This document shows, one piece after another, positions 7,229-55,822 of a DNA stretch of 64,000 nucleotides. Source of the stretch: Eubacteriales bacterium. Lineage in GTDB: Bacteria; Bacillota; Clostridia; Oscillospirales; CAG-272. Where the stretch lies: assembly GCA_045128515.1 (NCBI GenBank), contig JBGVRO010000010.1, forward strand, positions 4,489 to 68,488. The letters are read 5' to 3'. The notes beneath the pieces were generated by a model. That model was not told the DNA's origin. It did no database searches and worked only from the letters and a program-made list of their open reading frames with translations. Positions within the stretch are counted from its first letter, which is position 1. Each line of letters opens with the position of its first letter. Both the position numbers and the translations under genes were made by a program.

Positions 7229-7340
7229 CTATTAGGTAACAGTGGGATGCGGATGACACACCGCTTCGGATAATATCCTCCTTCGTCCGAGTGACAACTC
7301 CCCGTTCACTCAGCACTAAACGCGCGCCGTCCTACTCTGT
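7229..7340 (-). promoter_or_regulatory. THF (tetrahydrofolate) riboswitch
   Basis: The minus-strand RNA reads ACAGAGUAGGACGGCGCGCGUUUAGUGCUGAGUGAACGGGGAGUUGUCACUCGGACGAAGG...CGGUGUGUCAUCCGCAUCCCACUGU. It carries the THF-class blocks AGAGUAG, GCGCGUU.AGUG, GUGAA.GGG, GUCAC, ACGAAG and CAUCCGC, and sits in front of folT. Confidence 0.8.
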
Positions 7341-7353
7341 CATGTATGATAGC

Positions 7354-10179: not shown

Positions 10180-11295
10180 TTAGTTATCCTCCTTAATTAA
10201 TTTTCCGTAATCTACGAATATTCTTGCTATATCTTTACCCATAAGGTAGAAAATTGCTTCATAGGCAGCCCATTTTTTTGCCTCGGTTTTCGATTCGCAT
10301 ACATATTCTCCTGAGGTCTCGTAAATCCTGTCAATTGTGCAGGAGCACGTCCATTGAGGATTGCCTGACTGAGATTTTTTGCCTTCAGAAAAACGGTATT
10401 CAGGTTTTGGAATAATTCCTTTTTGCCACAACTCTTGGAGCTGATTTATTGCACGCTCGGGATCAATATTGCCTATAGCGTTCTTTATTTTTTCTGCCAT
10501 ATTGTTTGTTTTTCCGATAAACGCCATAGCTCTCTTCGCCGCCATTCTTCGTGCACCGGGTAAAGTTTTGCCGTAGCCGTACGCAAGATAGCTTAACATC
10601 TCGTATCCCAAGTCAATACACACGCCGTAATCAAGCTTTTCAAAATCTGTTGGTATTGACTCCACCTGCATAATCTTGCCGTGAGAGTCAAACCATTGCT
10701 TAAGCTCCTTTTCGTAGTCAGGCTCTGAGGGTAATCCCTCCTCAAGCACCCTGTCAACGTCAAGTAATCGAAGAATGATTTCCTCGAGGATGTTCATATT
10801 CCAGTTGCTGTCAATGGCAACTGCGCCAATAATTGCCTCAAAAAGGTCCTCCTTGACCGAGGCCTCGTTTTGTACGCCCCCTTCAATGTCACTTTTTCCC
10901 ATAATTAAGTAATCGTGGAATCCACATTTTTCGGTGGCTGCGGCAAGGGAAGAACGCTGTACCAGCGCTATTTTCAGTTCGCTAAGCTCTGATTCGTCAA
11001 GTTCACTTCTGAATTGATTTCTTTCAACGTATTTTTGACAATTTTGATCTGCTACTTTGAGATATGCCTCGATGATTTCGGGACTGATTTCTTTGCGCTT
11101 GTAGTATCCTGAGATGTGTTTTACAATTATCATACCAAGCGCACTGTCGCCGATAAATTCAAGCACCTCGTTGTTTTCGCCACCGTTTTCAGCGGTGTAG
11201 GAGCGTCTTGTAAACGCCTGCTCAAGGAGAGTTTTGTTGTTGAATTCGTATCCGAGCGTTTTTTCTACCTCGGAAAAGTTAGTTGCTTTTGTCAT
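10180..11295 (-). CDS. Atypical ribonuclease III-domain protein with two dsRBD-like modules
   Basis: RNase III signature [13 protein letters not shown] and [13 protein letters not shown]. Two C-terminal dsRBD-like segments follow (..[22 protein letters not shown] and ..[18 protein letters not shown]). The start was set at the ATG at 11295 behind aaggaggtgc. The stop lies 1 nt from the DUF2130 start. Confidence 0.78.
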
Positions 11296-11664
11296 AAAAA
11301 AAGCACCTCCTTGTAAATTTAAATTTACAGAAAGGCGCAAAAATAGACCCATTAATGGCACTTCACCCAATACGGGCTTATCAGTGCATCAATCGGTCTG
11401 ACGAAAAAAAACTATTCAAGATAATTCCGTCGCATTTATTGATTTCCCCGATGCGCTGTCGGTGAGAGCAATAAATCCAATAGTATTATTTTGACCAGTT
11501 TTCAAGGTCACGCCTTATCTGCTATTTTATGGTAGCACATTTTTTCGCGTTTGTCAATAGGATTTTAAAAAATCTTCAAGAAAAAATTTCGACTCTAATT
11601 GATTATAAAACGCTAGAAAGACTCGCATTTCTGCTGGTCTTTTTTTATTGTATGGTTTATATTC

Positions 11665-15815: not shown

Positions 15816-15850
15816 AATAATAAAGAAAATCCACCCAAATAGGTGGATTT
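15816..15850 (-). terminator. Intrinsic terminator of the enoate-reductase/AcnX operon
   Basis: On the minus strand: aaatccacc-tatttg-ggtggattt followed by tctttatt. Confidence 0.5.
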
Positions 15851-15857
15851 TCTGGTA

Positions 15858-15976
15858 TATGAATTGTCCTTCGGACATGAATTGAACCGTTGGTTCATGA
15901 ATTGCCTACGGCATGAATTGTGCGTTGCACATTAATTGACGGCAAAGCCGTCATGAATTGCACCTAGGGTGCATTA
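15858..15976 (-). repeat. Hairpin array A: six perfect variable hairpins joined by the constant linker CA-TGAAT-TG
   Basis: Plus strand: tatgaattg|tccttcgga|catgaattg|aaccgttggtt|catgaattg|cctacgg|catgaattg|tgcgttgca|cattaattg|acggcaaagccgt|catgaattg|cacctagggtg|cattatt. The array abuts the stop codon at 15977. Confidence 0.9.
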
Positions 15977-17737: not shown

Positions 17738-17851
17738 GTTTGCATAAGCAAACATTTCATCCGCCTTGGCGGATTTCATCCTGTATTACAGGATTTCATT
17801 CGGGCATTTGCCCGAATTTCATTGTATGAAGATCGTTTAGATCTTCATACA
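17738..17851 (-). repeat. Hairpin array C: five perfect hairpins joined by AT-TTC-AT linkers
   Basis: gtttgc-ataa-gcaaac | atccgcc-tt-ggcggat | atcctgt-att-acaggat | attcgggc-attt-gcccgaat | tgtatgaagatc-gttta-gatcttcataca. The last stem is built from the final four codons and the stop of the enoate-reductase gene. Confidence 0.88.
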
Positions 17852-19906
17852 AACGTCCCATGCGCCCCAGATAACCGTTCTGAGGTTGCCAACGTTCTGC
17901 GCGTCACCGATGATGTGAACGTGCTTAGACTTCTTTGCGATGGGTGCGGGGTTGTAACCAACAGAGAGAACTACGGAGTCGCAAGAAATTTCACTTGTAT
18001 TTCCGTTCTTGTCTGCGATAACAACAGCGCCGTCCTTGATCTCCTTAACGCCTGTTTCAAGATGTACAGCCACCTTGTTTGCGTTGAAGAAGTCACGAAG
18101 GTAGGAGGTGTTTGCAAGACAAATACCGGGAGTTGTGATAAGGTCGTCCTGCATTTCAACAACGACAGGCTCCTTGCCCTGAAGGTAGAGATCGTATGCG
18201 ATCTCACAGCCTGTAAGACCGCCGCCGATAACTACTACCTTGTTGCCAACGGTCTTGTTGCCGAGAAGGTAATCAACAGCCTCAACAGACTTTTCTACAC
18301 CGGGAATAGGAATTCTCTTTGCCTTAGCACCGGTAGCAATAATAATTTCATCAGCCTTGATAGCCGAAATATCCTTAATCTCGGTATTAAGCTTAACCTC
18401 GATAGGAAGCTTCTGTACCTCTCTGATATACCATGCGATAAGCTCGCGGTCCTTCTCCTTGAAGGAGGGAGCAGCAGCTGCTACGAATACACCGCCAAGC
18501 TTGTCGGTCTTTTCGTAAATGGTAACCTTGTGTCCGCGCTTTGTAAGGAGAATTGCTGCCTCCATACCGCCGATACCACCACCGATAACCGCAACGTTTT
18601 TAGCCTTCTTTGCAGGCTTCACGTAGTACTTCTTGGACTGCATGGTCTCGGGATTAAGCGCACAGCGTGCAAGACCCATAGTGTCGGTAAGGTCCTGGGT
18701 GTTGTAGTGACCCTTGGAGGAGGAGAAGTTGAAGCAGCCTGCATGACAGCAGATACAGGGACGGATGTCCTCGATTCTGTCCTCAATAAGCTTGGTAACC
18801 CACTCTCCGTCTGCAAGGAACTGTCTTGCAATACCAACACCGTCGATTCTGCCTTCAGCAACGGCCTTAGCACCAACGTCAGGCTCCATACGGCCTGCAC
18901 ATACTACGGGGATGTCAACGAACTTCTTGATGTGAGCAACGTCGTCAAGGTTACAGTTCTGGGGCATGTACATCGGGGGATGTGCCCAGTACCAGGAGTC
19001 ATATGTACCGTTGTCTGCGTTAAGCATATCATAGCCTGCGTCCTGAAGATACTTTGCAGCTCTCTCGGACTCTTCCATGTTACGACCAACCTCGATGTAC
19101 TTCTCACCGGGAACGGCACCCTCGCGGAAGCCCTTCATCTTGGACTCTACCGAGTAACGGAGAGAAACGGGGAAGTCCTCGCCACACTCAGCCTTGATTG
19201 CCTTAACAACCTCTGCTGCAAAGCGGTATCTGTTCTCAAAGCTGCCACCGTATTCGTCGGTACGCTTGTTGAAGAACTCGATTGCGAACTGGTCAAGAAG
19301 ATAACCCTCATGTACTGCGTGTACCTCAACACCGTCAACACCTGCGTCGCGGCAGAGCTTTGCGGTCTTTGCAAATGCCTCGATGATCTCGTGAATCTGG
19401 TGCTTGGTCATTTCGGGACAGATGATGTCGGGTGCCCAACGAGCAGGCTGCTCGGAGGGAGATGCAAGCTCGTGGCTTGTATCAAGAATGGGCTTAAGAA
19501 TTGCTCTTGTAAACTTGTTCTTATGGAGAGGGCCTATAAGCTCGGTGATCGCCCAGGAGCGTCCCATACCTGCGGTAAGCTGAATGAAGAGCTTTGCGCC
19601 TGTCTTGTGGATCTCGTCCATAAATTCCTTAAGTTCCTCGAACATCTTGGGATTCTGCCAGAGCCACTTGCCCCAGAAGGTATCTCTAAGGGGAGCGATA
19701 CCGGGGATGATAAGACCTACGTTATTGTTTGCTCTCTCAAGGAAAAGCTTTGCAGCCTCCTTGTCAAAGCCACAGCCGGTCAGCTCAAACCAACCAAACA
19801 GCGACGTACCGCCCATAGGACACATAACGATACGGTTTTTGATCTCTACGTTGCCTATTTTCCAAGGGGTAAACAGGGCTTCGTACTTAGGATCTATGTT
19901 TGCCAT
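17837..19906 (-). CDS. 2-enoate reductase / 2,4-dienoyl-CoA-reductase-like flavoprotein (OYE FMN domain, 4Fe-4S, FAD/NAD(P) domain)
   Basis: N-terminal OYE-like segment (I.NRIVM.PMG), the Cys cluster CICCHAGC and the dinucleotide fold VAVIGGGIGGMEAA. Confidence 0.85.
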   Translation of the reverse strand: MANIDPKYEALFTPWKIGNVEIKNRIVMCPMGGTSLFGWFELTGCGFDKEAAKLFLERANNNVGLIIPGIAPLRDTFWGKWLWQNPKMFEELKEFMDEIHKTGAKLFIQLTAGMGRSWAITELIGPLHKNKFTRAILKPILDTSHELASPSEQPARWAPDIICPEMTKHQIHEIIEAFAKTAKLCRDAGVDGVEVHAVHEGYLLDQFAIEFFNKRTDEYGGSFENRYRFAAEVVKAIKAECGEDFPVSLRYSVESKMKGFREGAVPGEKYIEVGRNMEESERAAKYLQDAGYDMLNADNGTYDSWYWAHPPMYMPQNCNLDDVAHIKKFVDIPVVCAGRMEPDVGAKAVAEGRIDGVGIARQFLADGEWVTKLIEDRIEDIRPCICCHAGCFNFSSSKGHYNTQDLTDTMGLARCALNPETMQSKKYYVKPAKKAKNVAVIGGGIGGMEAAILLTKRGHKVTIYEKTDKLGGVFVAAAAPSFKEKDRELIAWYIREVQKLPIEVKLNTEIKDISAIKADEIIIATGAKAKRIPIPGVEKSVEAVDYLLGNKTVGNKVVVIGGGLTGCEIAYDLYLQGKEPVVVEMQDDLITTPGICLANTSYLRDFFNANKVAVHLETGVKEIKDGAVVIADKNGNTSEISCDSVVLSVGYNPAPIAKKSKHVHIIGDAQNVGNLRTVIWGAWDVCMKI

Positions 19907-23832: not shown

Positions 23833-23923
23833 CGTTTTCTATTTACTTTTAAATATTTATATGGTATAATACAAAATGGTGTAATTTGCGCCGATTTTTG
23901 TTGTGGATGGAGGTTTAGATGTA

Positions 23924-24631
23924 ATGAGAATAGATAAGCTTTTGTCCGAGCTTGGCATCGCCTCGCGTAAGGAGGCGGCTAAGGTTGCGAAATCGGGTGG
24001 AATCATCATAGACGGCATAGCCGTAAGAGATGTGTCAAAGCATATCGACCCCGAAAAATCCAAGGTGATCTATCTCGGTCGGGAGATAGTGTATCAAAAG
24101 TACACCTACGTTATGCTGAACAAGCCTACGGGATACGTCAGCGCAACAGATGACAAGAGTTTGCCCTACGTTACCGAGCTTTTGCCCGAGGAACTGAGAC
24201 GACGTGAGCTTTTCCCGGTGGGACGTCTTGACCGCGATACGGTTGGTCTTATGATACTTACCAACAACGGTGTTCTCGCTCATTCGCTTTTATCCCCCAA
24301 GCACCACGTAACAAAAGAGTATTATTTCACTGCTGCCGAGCCTGTAAGGGAAGGCGCAGAGGAGAATTTTAAGGATGGTGTGACCCTTGCCGATGGGTAT
24401 GAATGTAAGCCTGCTGAGCTATATCTCTCCGAGGATAGACGAGAGGGAAGAATTGTGCTTACCGAGGGTAAATATCACCAGATAAAGCGTATGATAGCAG
24501 CGCAGGATAACCGTGTTACAAGCCTTGAGCGAATTTCCTTTGGTGGAATTTTGCTTGATCGAACACTTGCTCGCGGTGAGTGGCGCTATCTTACTAAAGA
24601 AGAAATTATTATCCTTGAGATGCAAGGATAA
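23924..24631 (+). CDS. rsuA: Pseudouridine synthase, RsuA/RluB family, with an S4 domain
   Basis: S4 domain MRIDKLLSELGIASRKEA and the catalytic motif GRLDRDTVGL. The start was set at the ATG at 23924 behind ggaggt. Confidence 0.85.
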   Translation: MRIDKLLSELGIASRKEAAKVAKSGGIIIDGIAVRDVSKHIDPEKSKVIYLGREIVYQKYTYVMLNKPTGYVSATDDKSLPYVTELLPEELRRRELFPVGRLDRDTVGLMILTNNGVLAHSLLSPKHHVTKEYYFTAAEPVREGAEENFKDGVTLADGYECKPAELYLSEDRREGRIVLTEGKYHQIKRMIAAQDNRVTSLERISFGGILLDRTLARGEWRYLTKEEIIILEMQG

Positions 24632-24634
24632 TAA

Positions 24635-24823
24635 TGTTTCGCAAAGCGAAACAATTCATGCACGAAGTGCAATTCATGGCGATAGCCAATTCATGCCATA
24701 GGCAATTCATAAAAGAATGAATTGAAGCCACAGGCTTCATGAATTGAGATCTTTGATCTCATGAATTGATGCTACACATCATGAATTGAAACCATGTTTC
24801 ATGATTTGAAGGCACAGCCTTCA
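24635..24823 (+). repeat. Hairpin array B: ten perfect hairpins. The same linker as array A is present in both orientations, flipping at a central 8-bp palindrome.
   Basis: Four units use CAATTCATG linkers. A central caattcat-aaaaga-atgaattg follows, then five units use CATGAATTG linkers. The array fills the gap from 4 nt after the rsuA stop to the tex RBS. Confidence 0.9.
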
Positions 24824-24848
24824 TTAACAATATAAGGAGAAAAAACAA

Positions 24849-27038
24849 ATGGACATTTTAAAGACTCTTGCTGAGGAATTTAAAATCAAGGAAGAGCAGG
24901 TTAAGGAAACCGTTGCTCTTATCGACGAGGGAAACACCATTCCCTTCATTTCACGTTACCGTAAGGAGGTTACAGGCGGTCTTGATGACGCTACCCTTCG
25001 TGACCTTAACGATAGACTTAACTACCTTCGCAAGATGGAGGAAAGACGCGAGGAGATCTCTAATCTCATAGACGCACAGGGAAAGCTTACTCCCGAGATC
25101 ACCTTTGCCCTTAACAATGCAAAGACTCTTGTAGAGCTTGAGGATATTTATCTTCCTTACAGACCCAAGAGAAAGACCAGAGCATCTGTTGCGCGTGACA
25201 AGGGACTTGAGCCTCTTGCTAATTACATTATGGAGCAGAAGGACGTATACGATCCCGAGATCGCCGTATATGCTGAGCAGTTTATCGTTATTTCCGATGA
25301 AAAGGATAAGGCTGTTCCTACCGTAGAGGCGGCTCTGCAGGGCGCAAGCGATATTATCGCCGAGGATATTTCCAACAATGCCGAGATCAGAAAGATGCTC
25401 CGTGAGTTCACTATGAGAAACGGCAGCCTTTCCTCTAAGGGTACAACCGAGGAAACAAGCGTATATGAAAATTACTACGACTTCTCCGAGCCTATCAAAA
25501 AGCTTAAGGGACACCGCGTTCTTGCTATCAACCGTGGCGAGAAGGAAGAATTCCTTAAGGTTGCGGTTACCCTGCCCGAGGAGGACGGCATAGCGCAGAT
25601 CGTTGCTAAGGTCGTTACCAACAAGCAGTCTCCTGCACTTTCTTACCTTATGGCAACCATTCGCGATGCATACGACAGACTTCTGTTCCCTGCAATCGAG
25701 CGTGAGGTTCGTACTACACTCTTCGACGATGCTTGCGAGGGTGCGCTTAAGGTATTCTCCGAGAACCTTCGTAACCTTCTTCTTGCAGCTCCCATTAAGG
25801 GCAAGACCGTTCTTGGTTACGACCCCGGTTATGCTCACGGCTGTAAGCTTGCAGTAGTTGATAAGACAGGCAAGGTGCTTGACACCGCCGTTATTTACCC
25901 CGTAAAGCCCAGAGAGGATATTGAGAGATCCAAGGCCGTTGTACTTCGCCTTATTAAGAAGCATAACGTTGATATTATTTCTATCGGTAACGGTACCGCA
26001 TCCCGTGAGAGCGAGGCGTTTATTGCAGAGCACGTTATCCGTGACGCAAGCTGTCCCAAGACTGTAAAGTATACTATCGTTTCCGAGGCGGGCGCTTCGG
26101 TTTATTCTGCATCTAAGGTTGCAACCGAGGAATTCCCCGACTTTGACGTAATGCAGAGATCTGCTATTTCTATTGCAAGAAGAATTCAGGATCCCCTTGC
26201 AGAGCTTGTTAAGATCGAGCCTAAGGCTATCGGTGTTGGTCAGTATCAGCACGATATGAAGCAGGCAAGACTTACCGAGGCTCTCGGTGGCGTAGTTGAG
26301 GGCTGTGTAAACGGTGTTGGTGTTGACGTTAACACTGCATCCTACTCTCTCCTTTCTTACGTATCGGGTATCAATACCACCGTTGCAAAGAATATCGTTA
26401 AGTATAGAGAAGAGCATGGAGAGTTCAAGACCCGTGCGCAGATCCTTAAGGTTCCGAAGCTTGGTGACAAGGCGTTCACACAGTGCGCAGGCTTCCTTCG
26501 TATCCACGACGGTAAGCAGGTGTTTGACTCCACCGGCGTTCATCCCGAGTCCTATGCAATCGCAGAGGATCTTCTTAAGCGTTTCGGCTTCTCTACCGAG
26601 GACGTAAAAAATAATAATCTCGCTCTCCTTCGCTTCAAGGCAGAGCAGTACGGCATCGCCAAGCTTGCTCGCGAGCTTGGCTGTGGTGAGCCTACTCTTG
26701 AGGACATTATCTCCGAGCTTGAGAAGCCCGGAAGAGATATCCGTGACGATGCTCCCGCACCTATCCTTTCCACCGACGTTCTCGACATCAATGATCTTAA
26801 GCCTGATATGCAGCTTAAGGGTACGGTTAGAAACGTTGTTGATTTCGGTTGCTTCGTTGATATCGGAGTTCACCACGACGGCCTTCTTCACATCTCCGAG
26901 ATGAGCGATAAGTTTATTAAGCACCCCTCCGAGATGTTCAAGACAGGCGACGTAATCGAGGTTCGTATCAAGGACGTTGACGTTAAAAAGCATAGAATTT
27001 CTCTTACCCGTAAGGGAATGAATACCTCTAAGGGTTAA
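24849..27038 (+). CDS. tex: Tex-like transcription accessory protein (YqgF/HhH/S1 domains)
   Basis: N-terminus ..TIPFISRYRKE.TGGLD and a C-terminal S1 domain (G.V.NVVDFG.FVDIG...DGL.HIS). Confidence 0.93.
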   Translation: MDILKTLAEEFKIKEEQVKETVALIDEGNTIPFISRYRKEVTGGLDDATLRDLNDRLNYLRKMEERREEISNLIDAQGKLTPEITFALNNAKTLVELEDIYLPYRPKRKTRASVARDKGLEPLANYIMEQKDVYDPEIAVYAEQFIVISDEKDKAVPTVEAALQGASDIIAEDISNNAEIRKMLREFTMRNGSLSSKGTTEETSVYENYYDFSEPIKKLKGHRVLAINRGEKEEFLKVAVTLPEEDGIAQIVAKVVTNKQSPALSYLMATIRDAYDRLLFPAIEREVRTTLFDDACEGALKVFSENLRNLLLAAPIKGKTVLGYDPGYAHGCKLAVVDKTGKVLDTAVIYPVKPREDIERSKAVVLRLIKKHNVDIISIGNGTASRESEAFIAEHVIRDASCPKTVKYTIVSEAGASVYSASKVATEEFPDFDVMQRSAISIARRIQDPLAELVKIEPKAIGVGQYQHDMKQARLTEALGGVVEGCVNGVGVDVNTASYSLLSYVSGINTTVAKNIVKYREEHGEFKTRAQILKVPKLGDKAFTQCAGFLRIHDGKQVFDSTGVHPESYAIAEDLLKRFGFSTEDVKNNNLALLRFKAEQYGIAKLARELGCGEPTLEDIISELEKPGRDIRDDAPAPILSTDVLDINDLKPDMQLKGTVRNVVDFGCFVDIGVHHDGLLHISEMSDKFIKHPSEMFKTGDVIEVRIKDVDVKKHRISLTRKGMNTSKG

Positions 27039-43990: not shown

Positions 43991-45202
43991 ATGGAAATAA
44001 AAAACAATAAAGTACTTAACATCATACTCAAGGTTGTAACGGGCTTACTGATAGCATTCACCGTATTCATTATGATCTTCACCGTCGTATCGGTTACCAC
44101 CCTTGACAAAAATGACCGTAACCTTTTCGGTTTCAGATTCTACATAGTACAGACCGACTCAATGAGTCCCTCTGAAAACAATGCTCATCTCGACGTTCAT
44201 TTCAGCGCAGGTGACATCGTTGTTATCAAGAACGTTAAGAATCCTACTAAGCTTGAGGCAGGAGATATCATTGCTTTTATCTCGACTAACAAGGTAAGCT
44301 ACGGCGAGACCGTAACGCATATGATCCGTAAGCCTACGGTTGATAAGGATGGCAGAACCTGTTACGTTACTTACGGTACTAACACTAATACTGATGATGA
44401 AGCGTGCGTGTATCCCGAGTACGTAATCGGCGAGTACGCAGGCAAGCTTCCCGGTGTCGGACACTTCTTCGCATTCGTTAAGTCCACCCCCGGTTACATC
44501 TGCTGTATTTTGATTCCTTTCCTGCTTCTCATACTTTATAACGGCGCTGACGTAATCCGCCTGTTCAGAAAGTACAAGAAGGAGCAGACCGCTATACTCG
44601 ATGCCGAAAAGGCTGAGATCGCCGCAGAGAGAGCGCGTAATGAGGAAATGCTTCGCGAGCTTCTTGCTCTTAAGAATCAGCTCGCAGGTAATGCTCCTGC
44701 CGAGGCACAGCCCACAGCGACTGCCGAAGCACCTGTCACAGAGACAGCGCCTGTCGTAGAAGCGGCTCCCACGGTTGAGGAGAAGCCCATGACAGAGGAG
44801 GAGATCGCTGCTCAGAAGAAGGCTGAAGCTGCTCGCAAGCGTAAGGAAACCCTCGCTCGCAAGAAGGCAGAGGCAGAGGCGGCAAAGCTCGCTGAGGAGG
44901 AGGCTGCACGTAAGGCTGCCGAGGAAGAGGCACAGCGTCTTGCTGATGAGGCTGCCGCACAGAAGAAGGCTGAGGCTGCTCGTAAGCGCAAGGAAACTCT
45001 TGCTCGTAAGAAGGCAGAAGCTGAGGAAGAGGCGGCACGTGTTGCTGCTGAAGAAGAGGCACAGCGCCTTGCTGATGAAGCTGCCGCACAGAAGAAGGCT
45101 GAAGCTGCTCGCAAGCGTAAGGAAACCCTCGCTCGCAAGAAGGCAGAGGCAGAGGCGGCAAAGGCTGCTGAAAACAATCCCGACGACAAGTCGGACACTT
45201 AA
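43991..45202 (+). CDS. sipW: Archaeal/ER-type (S26B, SipW-like) signal peptidase I with a ~210-aa Ala/Glu/Lys-rich C-terminal tail
   Basis: N-terminal TM, the Ser box VQTDSMSP, GDIVVI and GDIIAF boxes, the His box VTHMI and a second TM (YICCILIPFLLLILY). Three tail repeats of AAQKKAEAARKRKETLARKKAEAE follow. Confidence 0.8.
   Translation: MEIKNNKVLNIILKVVTGLLIAFTVFIMIFTVVSVTTLDKNDRNLFGFRFYIVQTDSMSPSENNAHLDVHFSAGDIVVIKNVKNPTKLEAGDIIAFISTNKVSYGETVTHMIRKPTVDKDGRTCYVTYGTNTNTDDEACVYPEYVIGEYAGKLPGVGHFFAFVKSTPGYICCILIPFLLLILYNGADVIRLFRKYKKEQTAILDAEKAEIAAERARNEEMLRELLALKNQLAGNAPAEAQPTATAEAPVTETAPVVEAAPTVEEKPMTEEEIAAQKKAEAARKRKETLARKKAEAEAAKLAEEEAARKAAEEEAQRLADEAAAQKKAEAARKRKETLARKKAEAEEEAARVAAEEEAQRLADEAAAQKKAEAARKRKETLARKKAEAEAAKAAENNPDDKSDT
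44807..45165 (+). repeat. Three tandem coding repeats (periods 144 and 129 bp) in the SipW tail
   Basis: Copies begin at 44807, 44951 and 45080. The first and third are nearly identical at the DNA level (gaagaaggctgaagctgctcgcaagcgtaaggaaaccctcgctcgcaagaaggcagaggcagaggcggcaaag). Confidence 0.85.
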
Positions 45203-55249: not shown

Positions 55250-55822
55250 ATGTACACTTTTATTATCATATTCTTGATTATAGCCACTATTTTCGCTATC
55301 GGAACGCTTATTTACGTTGTTGCCGATACTATCCTCGATCTCTTCAGAAAGAAGCCTGAGGAAGAAGAAAAGGTGGTTGAACAGCCCCCTGTTGTTGTGG
55401 TTGTTCCTGAACCCGAGCCTGAACCTGAGCCTGAGCCTGAGCCCGAACCCGAGCCCGAGCCTATACCCGTACCCGTAGTTATTCCTGTTCTTGAGGTAGA
55501 GCAGATCGACGCGGTTGAGGCAGATGCTATGATTCCTGACGAGGTTGCAATGGGATCTGTCCGCTACGAAAGCGGTGCAGGACACGGTAAGAAGGGTGAA
55601 ATTAACATCGGTGTTATTGACCAGCACTTTGAAGATGGCGAGGTCATCACCATTCAGGCACTTAAAAATAAAAATCTTATCAGCAGAAAGGATTGCCGCA
55701 TAAAGGTACTTGCCCACGGCATCCTTAGAAAGAGCTTCACCGTTAAGGCTGAAGCATTCTCGGTCGAGGCAATTAAGATGATCGAGCTTATGGGCGGTAC
55801 AGTAATAATTTTAGTTGATTGA
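55250..55822 (+). CDS. Membrane-anchored protein: N-terminal TM, (EP)n linker and a domain homologous to the C-terminal half of ribosomal protein uL15
   Basis: TM FIIIFLIIATIFAIGTLIYVVA followed by RKK, then (PE)x10. The segment KKGEINIGVIDQHFEDGEVITIQALKNKNLISRKDCRIKVLAHGILRKSFTVKAEAFSVEAIKMIELMGGTVIIL follows. It aligns with B. subtilis RplO ..[73 protein letters not shown]. Confidence 0.75.
   Translation: MYTFIIIFLIIATIFAIGTLIYVVADTILDLFRKKPEEEEKVVEQPPVVVVVPEPEPEPEPEPEPEPEPEPIPVPVVIPVLEVEQIDAVEADAMIPDEVAMGSVRYESGAGHGKKGEINIGVIDQHFEDGEVITIQALKNKNLISRKDCRIKVLAHGILRKSFTVKAEAFSVEAIKMIELMGGTVIILVD
55406..55476 (+). repeat. Hexanucleotide (GAR-CCY) coding microsatellite encoding (EP)n
   Basis: cctgaacccgagcctgaacctgagcctgagcctgagcccgaacccgagcccgagcct... 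Confidence 0.85.

Follow-up and report, generated by a model that had tools for sequence, protein, structure and literature searches.

Between an rsuA-like pseudouridine synthase gene and a tex gene, both on the plus strand of the window (the whole 64-kb stretch of DNA analysed here), lies array B, a chain of small hairpins built from two back-to-back modules. The features at this junction are:

23903 to 24631, plus strand: rsuA-like pseudouridine synthase gene (Pfam S4 and PseudoU_synth_2; TAA stop at 24629-24631)
24632 to 24711, minus strand: left module of array B, its letters read directly and fitting the family consensus
24712 to 24715, no strand: centre of array B, 4 nt (aaag) between the 5' ends of both modules
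24716 to 24826, plus strand: right module of array B, with AATGAATTG, three copies of CATGAATTG, CATGATTTG, five hairpins and a terminal CATTA
24849 to 27038, plus strand: tex gene (Pfam Tex domains; ATG at 24849)

Array B sets in 3 nt after the rsuA TAA, at the junction TAA/TAATG, with its first hairpin from 24635, and it ends at 24823, 11 nt short of the tex RBS (AAGGAG, 24834-24839), which is retained just 3' of it. An earlier reading of this DNA from its letters, the sequence-only reading, had rightly placed the start after the rsuA stop; its claim that the array runs exactly to the tex RBS does not hold. On the plus strand, the left module consists of TAATG and four hairpins joined by three copies of CAATTCATG (24652, 24670 and 24687) and one of CAATTCATA (24703), which on the minus strand reads TATGAATTG-hp-CATGAATTG-hp-CATGAATTG-hp-CATGAATTG-hp-CATTA, hp being a hairpin. 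In the right half, AATGAATTG stands at 24716, CATGAATTG at 24738, 24760 and 24780, and CATGATTTG at 24800. Both halves end outward in a hairpin and CATTA, so that the ends of the insert are TAATG...CATTA. The aaag centre and its flanking linkers make up the palindrome caattcat-aaaaga-atgaattg. The ten stems are all perfect and all different, 4-8 bp long including constant TG/CA closing pairs, and the TG...CA that closes every hairpin comes from the linker. The sequence-only reading had described just this, ten perfect and all-different hairpins whose linker flips orientation at a central palindrome. Folded as RNA, array B stands well apart from shuffled sequences (z = -5.6 for the plus strand and -6.3 for the minus strand), and its F and R linkers can pair with each other to give segments of dsRNA; a gene with an RNase III domain is present in the window. 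The earlier statement that no terminator separates the two genes also agrees with our search, in which no plus-strand terminator-like site was found between rsuA and tex, and this places array B within the operon transcript. Neither strand has a promoter-like site within or just outside the array, the three matches obtained sitting in the coding flanks.

A generic detector of constant-linker hairpin chains found only three in the 64 kb, array B and the following two:

15858 to 15976, plus strand: array A, sibling of array B, a single module with six linkers, TATGAATTG ... CATTA
17738 to 17852, minus strand: third array, with the linker AUGAAAU, which is the Rfam Gut-1 RNA RF01706 (Rfam match 17749-17824, 56 bits)

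Array A abuts the TAA stop of a minus-strand AcnX-swivel gene through the same TAA/TAATG junction as array B, and a bidirectional terminator-like hairpin (15824-15851) lies beside it. Over the whole window, 9-mers of the CAATTCATG type with up to one mismatch are not enriched (19 matches versus 18.3 expected), and arrays A and B hold 15 of these 19.

The linker belongs to a widely dispersed family. A pattern search for at least three linkers, with one genome per species, returned arrays in at least 120 genome stretches, and among the matches listed almost all are Clostridia MAGs from rumen or gut, with Oscillospiraceae, Acutalibacteraceae and Christensenellales as host groups. In the listed loci the arrays are intergenic, and they adjoin the 3' ends of genes somewhat more often. 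Exactly four linkers make up 136 of the 192 runs among the matches listed, in which the first linker is (A/G/T)ATGAATTG, with a non-C at position 1, in 141 of 192 runs and the internal linkers are CATGAATTG (490 cases). The module thus runs from (A/G/T)ATGAATTG through three copies of CATGAATTG and four hairpins to a terminal CATTA, the last hairpin being followed by either CATTA or CATTG (CATTR). Having a distinct first linker and a distinct end, it is polar, with five linker-like segments and four hairpins. It occurs alone, face to face (RRRR-centre-FFFF) or back to back (FFFF-RRRR); the face-to-face pair, of about 165 nt or about 250 nt, is the commonest composite, and the layout of array B recurs at three other loci (L033, L077 and L116), as does its CATGATTTG linker variant at four (L015, L024, L028 and L044). 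The 9-mer linker, the four-unit size of the module and its defined ends are conserved over at least 100 species. Other linker families are found in the same genome sets, with TCGATAT, GTGAAGT, GTGAAATA, TATATCAT, GTTATGA and GCTAAAT as linkers.

What lies between the linkers is conserved in shape and not in sequence. Among the matches listed, the stem extends without mismatch for 2 bp or more past TG/CA in 513 of 588 spacers, versus 47 of 588 when shuffled; there are 125 different stem sequences among these 588 spacers, and only the 9-nt linker is constant. The loops are of 3 or 4 nt, and it is only on the strand reading CAATTCATG that they are of the types G-N-A, G-N-N-A or CTTG (GAA, GCA, GTA, GCAA, GTAA, GTCA, CTTG), regardless of which strand of the locus carries the module. 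Between co-directional genes, arrays listed stand 22 times in the CAATTCATG sense and 24 times in the opposite one, so the strict bias that would have spoken against the sequence-only reading is absent and the linker is indeed used in both orientations relative to transcription. Its broader notion of strand independence has to be divided: orientation is random, but the modules have defined 5' and 3' ends and loop types confined to one strand. The counts of G-U and A-C mismatches in stems (13 versus 7, not significant) do not pick out a folded strand. An exact TATAAT upstream of the arrays is a trait of the gagtttgcaaagcaaactc subfamily only (7 of 26, versus 4 on the control side), and in one composite subfamily a TGnTATAAT box lies just upstream.

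Closely related strains differ in what they carry at these sites. Tex has many relatives with 95-100% identity, and where Tex is 96-97% identical the rsuA-tex spacer is 15-20 nt long and holds no array, the tex RBS coming right behind the rsuA stop. In relatives with 95% Tex identity, a module with the GTGATAT linker sits at the same junction (ggaTAA/TAATG) with a similar first hairpin, and a relative with 98% identity keeps a 53-nt remnant with two GTATTTCA motifs (an ATTTCA remnant). The AcnX-swivel protein beside array A has an identical sequence in many metagenomes, and four alleles of the site occur among strains in which this flanking protein is 100% identical. One is the CAATTCATG array with a few point changes; the second is filled by an unrelated, hairpin-rich stretch of 55 nt, the third is near-empty, and the fourth has TCGAAAT-like heptamers, four in tandem, that lack hairpins. 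Two alleles are known for the site of the third array, which is occupied by Gut-1 or else by a GTGATAT array with five hairpins or with three. Unit number also varies between strains, with hairpin-less tandem linkers at the same site (L224, L221), and one hairpin arm is copied from a flanking CDS. A comparison of empty and filled rsuA-tex sites revealed no clear target duplication, TAA at most, and a mobility enzyme for the modules was not found. The sequence-only reading would have taken absence from close relatives, with no footprint, as a sign of random local duplication. The array is absent from close relatives; but the same family is present in at least 120 other stretches and other linkers occupy the same site, which argues for a mobile element of fast turnover and against random duplication. 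These observations indicate that array modules are mobile, with gain, loss and replacement proceeding about as fast as strains diverge.

At two loci of the family, an ORF of 118-131 aa is enclosed by an R module on one side and an F module on the other. It belongs to PF05635 (23S_rRNA_IVP), or TIGR02436, "four helix bundle protein". Among the matches listed, homologues of it are present in 15 of 120 loci selected for their arrays, most array copies being gene-less, and at least 12 homologues lie within 100 nt of an array that stands on their 5' side with the CAATTCATG strand as the sense strand of the gene. Two more remote homologues also have arrays on their flanks, there with ATATCGA and TATATCATCA as the linkers. 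The association is reciprocal. With protein similarity as the sole criterion, 82 loci were chosen from metagenomes and viral contigs, and a constant-linker hairpin chain lies within 300 nt of 55 of the 82 PF05635 genes. Sequence of these loci more distant from the gene, 178 kb in all, holds only 12 such chains. At least three copies of one linker motif are found near 93 of 96 PF05635 genes. Of 20 loci of the Gut-1 type, 17 have an above-threshold match to the Rfam Gut-1 model immediately 5' of the gene. Full-length arrays are inverted pairs directly upstream of or around a PF05635 gene, with a polarity relative to it that is fixed in all linker families, and a frequent order is tRNA gene, long terminator-like hairpin, R module, centre, F module and PF05635 gene. 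The centre of the composites always holds a copy of the 3' arm of hairpin 1 that can pair with the end of linker 1 and the 5' arm of hairpin 1. This long-range P1 helix covaries (CC/GG, CCC/GGG, CAAC/GTTG, CAAT/ATTG, CGC/GCG; 0 of 2000 permutations reach the value), and together with the asymmetry of the loops it suggests a folded single strand.

Linker and protein vary together. PF05635 proteins are 0.68 identical within a linker family and 0.55 between families, a difference that 0 of 2000 permutations reach, and the nearest-neighbour protein shares the linker family in 72 of 84 cases. Such co-variation is expected for any two tightly linked sequences and does not by itself prove recognition. 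The sequence-only reading had asked for a dedicated recognition protein and had suggested a RAYT or Y1 transposase. The idea of a dedicated protein is supported, through a candidate associated with the arrays; the candidate it named is not, since no transposase recurs and the linked gene is an Avd-like PF05635 gene. Clustering of neighbour ORFs (148 of 235 distinct ones) revealed no transposase, RAYT/Y1 or reverse transcriptase recurring beside arrays or linked genes; a rumA-like methyltransferase is the only recurrent protein neighbour of the linked genes, and tRNA genes also recur. PADLOC has no match for the linked protein, for which we rejected a role as a defence-system component, and the PHROG match is a weak one, to "Avd protein of DGR". 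A phage origin was likewise rejected, at least three linkers being present on only 12 viral contigs and the gene on only 2. The contigs that carry array-linked PF05635 genes are in many cases about 1 kb long.

The first description of PF05635 concerned ORFs within the intervening sequences of 23S rRNA, segments removed by RNase III. It is a very large family (at least 8000 candidates scored, nearly all significant) with structures solved since 2006-2007 and, to our knowledge, no known function outside DGRs. The profile of the linked protein matches PDB 2RLD (BT_0352, five chains) at E 6e-38, and also 2GSC (five chains). Its AF2 model (pLDDT 92) is placed by Foldseek close to 2RLD (TM 0.84-0.92) and to the DGR accessory protein Avd (4DWL, TM 0.79-0.87). 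Avd, a pentamer, uses all five protomers to bind an RNA stem-loop, flipped-out bases entering crevices between protomers (bioRxiv 10.1101/2023.10.23.563531).

Short-repeat arrays bracket PF05635 genes in at least five bacterial phyla, and most of the heptamer arrays are free of hairpins. The BT_0352-type gene of Bacteroides has four to five copies of (C)AATTGAC (the CAATTGA heptamer) upstream and four inverse copies downstream, with no hairpins, and on metagenome contigs it sits within operons, between araD and araA or between an aminotransferase and a DAHP synthase gene. Of 12 plasmid PF05635 loci, from Cyanobacteriota, Bacteroidota, Spirochaetota, Bacillota and Chloroflexota, 11 are bracketed by their own inverted tandem heptamers, and the twelfth (L249) has no flanking repeats; these genes too sit within operons, often restriction or defence operons. 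The heptamers of Nostoc plasmids, CAATTCG and AATTCAA, resemble the linker of array B, the STRR1-type (CCCCAAT)n brackets a PF05635 gene in Planktothrix, and the Bernardetia heptamer is TTAGTGA, in 15 copies; arrays of 14-15 units occur in Bernardetia and Euhalothece. Array B can be read in the same terms, as (CAATTCA)n whose successive units are separated by small hairpins.

The explanation that we prefer, and to which we give an even chance, is that array B is composed of two back-to-back copies of a discrete module that would serve as a cis element of pentameric, Avd-like PF05635 proteins, here as an orphan. The CAATTCA-type, Gut-1, GTGATAT, TCGATAT, GCTAAAT and similar arrays would together form a superfamily with family-specific linkers. 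Under this explanation, array B would have entered an rsuA-tex spacer of 15-20 nt, by whatever mode the modules move, and would now be transcribed inside the rsuA-tex operon, where it may affect the expression of both genes. The four to five constant linkers would be the recognised units, kept single-stranded between hairpins. A hairpin brings its two ends side by side irrespective of the length or sequence of its stem, so that the hairpins would serve as sequence-free spacers, setting a fixed spacing of the linkers for the five equivalent sites of the protein ring. Linker recognition combined with spacer hairpins would explain why the linkers are constant while the stems are perfect and yet arbitrary. 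The strand and type of nucleic acid that the protein would bind may be the folded single strand suggested above, as RNA or as ssDNA. Gene-less arrays such as array B would be satellites of the gene-linked composites. Array B has the anatomy of the PF05635-linked class, with four linkers and CATTA in the left module, five linkers and CATTA in the right one and opposite polarity; what it lacks is a PF05635 gene within about 300 nt. The same holds for the whole 64-kb window, in which tblastn and a motif scan detected no PF05635 ORF, a point against our explanation that makes array B an orphan copy. Nor is the five-site idea a strict one, given the heptamer arrays of 14-15 units and the five to six linkers of arrays in the window. 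Processing of array B RNA by RNase III is a reasonable idea by analogy, from the pairing of F and R linkers, the presence in the window of a gene with an RNase III domain, and the origin of PF05635 as an ORF of rRNA intervening sequences that RNase III cuts out.

The association could also run the other way, with a small gene cassette homing into pre-existing arrays. In its full form, the arrays would be slippage-prone repeats beside stop codons and terminators, targets into which PF05635 cassettes insert, and array B would be neutral structured junk. The variation in unit number, the hairpin-less tandem linkers at the same site (L224, L221) and the hairpin arm copied from a coding sequence all fit slippage, and the lack of a mobility enzyme and the presence of the cassettes within unrelated operons are in line with it. 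We nevertheless regard it as unlikely: the 9-mer linker, the module of four and the defined ends are conserved over at least 100 species, the linker family tracks the similarity of PF05635 proteins, and random insertion would not yield the fixed inverted polarity around the gene found in all families. A shade less likely is a cis-acting RNA selected in place, either as an exonuclease shield for the rsuA 3' end or as an RNase III site uncoupling rsuA from tex, with no dedicated protein. The very stable fold (z -5.6), the absence of a terminator, the potential of F and R linkers for dsRNA alongside the RNase III-domain gene, and the history of PF05635 in sequences excised by RNase III would all suit such a role. 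Yet close relatives manage with an empty spacer of 15-20 nt, others have an array with a different linker at the same site, and the orientation of arrays is random with respect to transcription, which a sense-specific RNA signal would not allow.

We consider it improbable that array B is a REP/BIME-like element, in which an unlinked enzyme, a Y1 transposase (RAYT) or one of the IS200/IS605 type, recognises and spreads ssDNA hairpins and the PF05635 link is incidental. The dispersal of the arrays, their intergenic and orientation-independent placement in inverted pairs and their insertion polymorphism are as this idea predicts, and on one strand the G-N-A loops, with their C-G closing pair, correspond to the hyperstable DNA mini-hairpins of the d(GCGAAGC) type. 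Against it, the stems are not conserved and have no GTAG head, the unit is of 16-23 nt versus a conserved palindrome of 20-40 nt, no Y1 or other transposase recurs among the 235 neighbours of linked genes, and the association found is instead a strong, reciprocal and multi-phylum one with PF05635. Very improbable, finally, is an independent small RNA gene of the Gut-1 type. Rfam does class Gut-1 as sRNA, and one composite subfamily has the TGnTATAAT box, but in array B and its immediate surroundings there is no promoter-like site on either strand and no plus-strand terminator, and the array sits within an operon, 3 nt behind a stop codon.

Taking PF05635 as partner of the arrays, we further propose, tentatively and at somewhat below an even chance, that PF05635 pentamers and arrays of four to five repeats constitute a widespread two-part system, with clade-specific repeats, a cassette that settles in operons and gene-less satellites. 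Judging from the loci compared here, the repeats would be plain heptamers in Bacteroidota, Cyanobacteriota, Spirochaetota and Chloroflexota, and interrupted by hairpins in gut Clostridia. If this holds, three objects would gain a partner and a function open to testing: the Gut-1 RNA motif, an orphan in Rfam since 2010, the cyanobacterial STRR/heptamer repeats and the PF05635 family itself. For decades, cyanobacterial tandem heptamers have served as unexplained markers in strain typing. The reciprocal, multi-phylum association of protein and repeat, with family-specific repeats, unites these three objects in one hypothesis that gel shifts can test. The broader partnership of PF05635 with repeats would, if confirmed, be new: no published link of PF05635 with Gut-1, STRR or heptamer repeats was found in a search of literature with few subscription-journal papers, so that a prior description is possible, and the literature on the two 9-mers consisted only of primers and miRNA sequences. 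At a more practical level, arrays that are hypervariable between strains with identical flanking proteins are potential strain markers for gut metagenomes, and this same hypervariability is a likely cause of contig breaks. At the locus itself, array B widens the distance between rsuA and tex, otherwise 15-20 nt, by about 190 nt of highly stable structure.

Among known systems, a CRISPR array was rejected, as the repeats are of 9 nt, the spacers are palindromic and of 7-14 nt, and both repeat orientations occur in one array. CRISPR arrays have direct repeats of 23-50 nt, unique non-palindromic spacers of 26-72 nt and cas genes. A MITE has terminal inverted repeats, a target-site duplication and an autonomous relative that encodes a transposase; measured against this, array B has the ends TAATG...CATTA and a duplication of at most TAA, and no transposase relative was found. 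We also rejected a 23S rRNA intervening sequence: these lie in helix 25 or 45 and are excised by RNase III, whereas array B sits between two protein genes, with no rRNA match near it. The likeness is that the PF05635 ORFs of intervening sequences are bracketed by inverted sequences as well, and the difference that the element of array B is not inside an rRNA. With Avd, the linked PF05635 protein shares the fold and the five-chain crystals, and Avd binds structured RNA through its five protomers; on the other hand, there is no reverse transcriptase, template repeat or variable repeat near the arrays, and identity to Avd is about 10%.

REP, BIME and REPIN elements are also short extragenic palindromes in mosaics and inverted pairs, often after stop codons and with a dedicated linked gene. 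The BIME mosaics to which the sequence-only reading had compared the array are an apt analogy for dispersed, intergenic, modular elements in head-to-head and tail-to-tail pairs. However, the stem of a REP has a conserved sequence with a GTAG head, whereas the class of array B conserves the linker only, and the partner of REP is a Y1 transposase while that of the arrays is a non-enzymatic four-helix bundle. The array family has no conserved palindrome of 20-40 nt, no GTAG and no flanked RAYT gene, so that REP/BIME/RAYT is a functional analogy only. The STRR and TAACTGA repeats of cyanobacteria are short, intergenic, tandem 7-mers of unexplained function and suspected horizontal spread (PMC4679880). 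They differ from array B in taxa and sequences, and most heptamer arrays are free of hairpins. In Nostoc, Elhai et al. reportedly described in 2008 small hairpin-like mobile inserts between heptamers, a nesting like that of the hairpins intercalated between the CAATTCA units of array B, and by analogy these are the closest counterpart to heptamers with intercalated hairpins.

The nearest likeness is with Gut-1, a candidate sRNA (also its class in Rfam) from human-gut metagenomes for which no function, protein partner, inverted composite or polymorphism was given (Weinberg et al. 2010, PMC2864571). Array B has no Rfam match at E up to 10, nor have the canonical composites, and in a cmscan of 24500-24950 at the same E, Gut-1, whose gathering threshold is 50 bits, was absent. 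The ten hairpins of array B on a constant linker follow the Gut-1 architecture of three or more variable-stem hairpins, but the linker, CAUGAAUUG, differs at two or more positions from the purine-rich (G/A)UGAAAU, being of the type UGAAUU/CAUGAAUUG where that of Gut-1 is UGAAAU. Both have hairpins of variable stem on a short constant linker, three of them in the Gut-1 consensus (CAaUGAAAU-hp-GUGAAAU-hp-GUGAAAu-hp-UGAAAU), both have gut Clostridia as hosts, with a copy of each in the same window, and both show allelic turnover and a link to PF05635. Gut-1 is the closest described object to array B, of the same design on another linker and with a model that array B does not match.

Besides arrays A and B, the window carries a third hairpin array, which matches the Rfam Gut-1 RNA. 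This array and its first hairpin are placed as follows:

Window 17738-17852, minus strand: hairpin array with linker AUGAAAU, matching Gut-1 RNA (RF01706, 56 bits)
Window 17825-17852 (about 1570-1600 in comparison locus L217): hairpin 1 of this array, ttgtatgaagatc-TAAg-gatcttcatacaa

Where the window has this array, other strains of the species carry one of five or three hairpins with the linker GTGATAT. Hairpin 1 takes its 5' arm from the oxidoreductase gene that lies upstream, namely from its final codons and stop codon. The 3' arm repeats this coding sequence in inverted form and is missing in the alternative allele. At the site of array A, the sibling of the array under study, comparison locus L224 (3445-3500), from another strain, carries four linker-like heptamers in tandem (TCGAAAT, TCAAAAT, TCGAAAT, TCGAAAT) without intervening hairpins.

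Modules of different families can be concatenated, since in L048 (737-869; 3-93) a module with CAATTCATG, the linker of arrays A and B, directly adjoins an array of another family, with linker GTGAAGT. MAGs that bear the labels Collimonas, Synergistes, Prevotella, Ferruginibacter, planctomycete, cyanobacterium and Chitinophagaceae also contain a few CAATTCATG arrays (L021, L022, L023, L047, L059, L073, L079), which could reflect either binning contamination or genuine transfer.

A shared gene order was found in 13 loci (including L089, L020, L084, L107, L069, L078, L120 and L134), in which a rumA/rlmD-like 23S rRNA methyltransferase gene is followed by a long hairpin, a CAATTCATG composite and a four-helix-bundle gene. 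Genes of the four-helix-bundle family PF05635 also lie within operons, in the same direction as their neighbours and with inverted tandem heptamers on both sides (L226-L237; L238-L248). These operons include araD/araA, aminotransferase/DAHP synthase, hsdS/hsdR, DrmD/PglX, DUF1156/Swt1-HEPN and RND adaptor/permease. Upstream of one such gene, on plasmid p1 of Planktothrix agardhii (L243), the heptamer is (AATCCCC)n, equal to (CCCCAAT)n, which is the cyanobacterial STRR1 unit, a repeat employed in strain fingerprinting of cyanobacteria.

The window holds further features, among them three tandem repeats that apparently lie within coding sequence:

2126-2811: 9-nt units (AAGGGTGAC) inside a 120-nt repeat
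44891-45155: 129-nt unit, 2.1 copies
55406-55475: CCTGAG-type hexamers, 9.5 copies
7238-7341, minus strand: THF riboswitch (RF01831, 75.8 bits)
10180-11370, minus strand: RNase III-domain protein that also carries a dsRNA-binding motif

With 396 aa, this last protein greatly exceeds the roughly 230 aa that are typical of bacterial RNase III.
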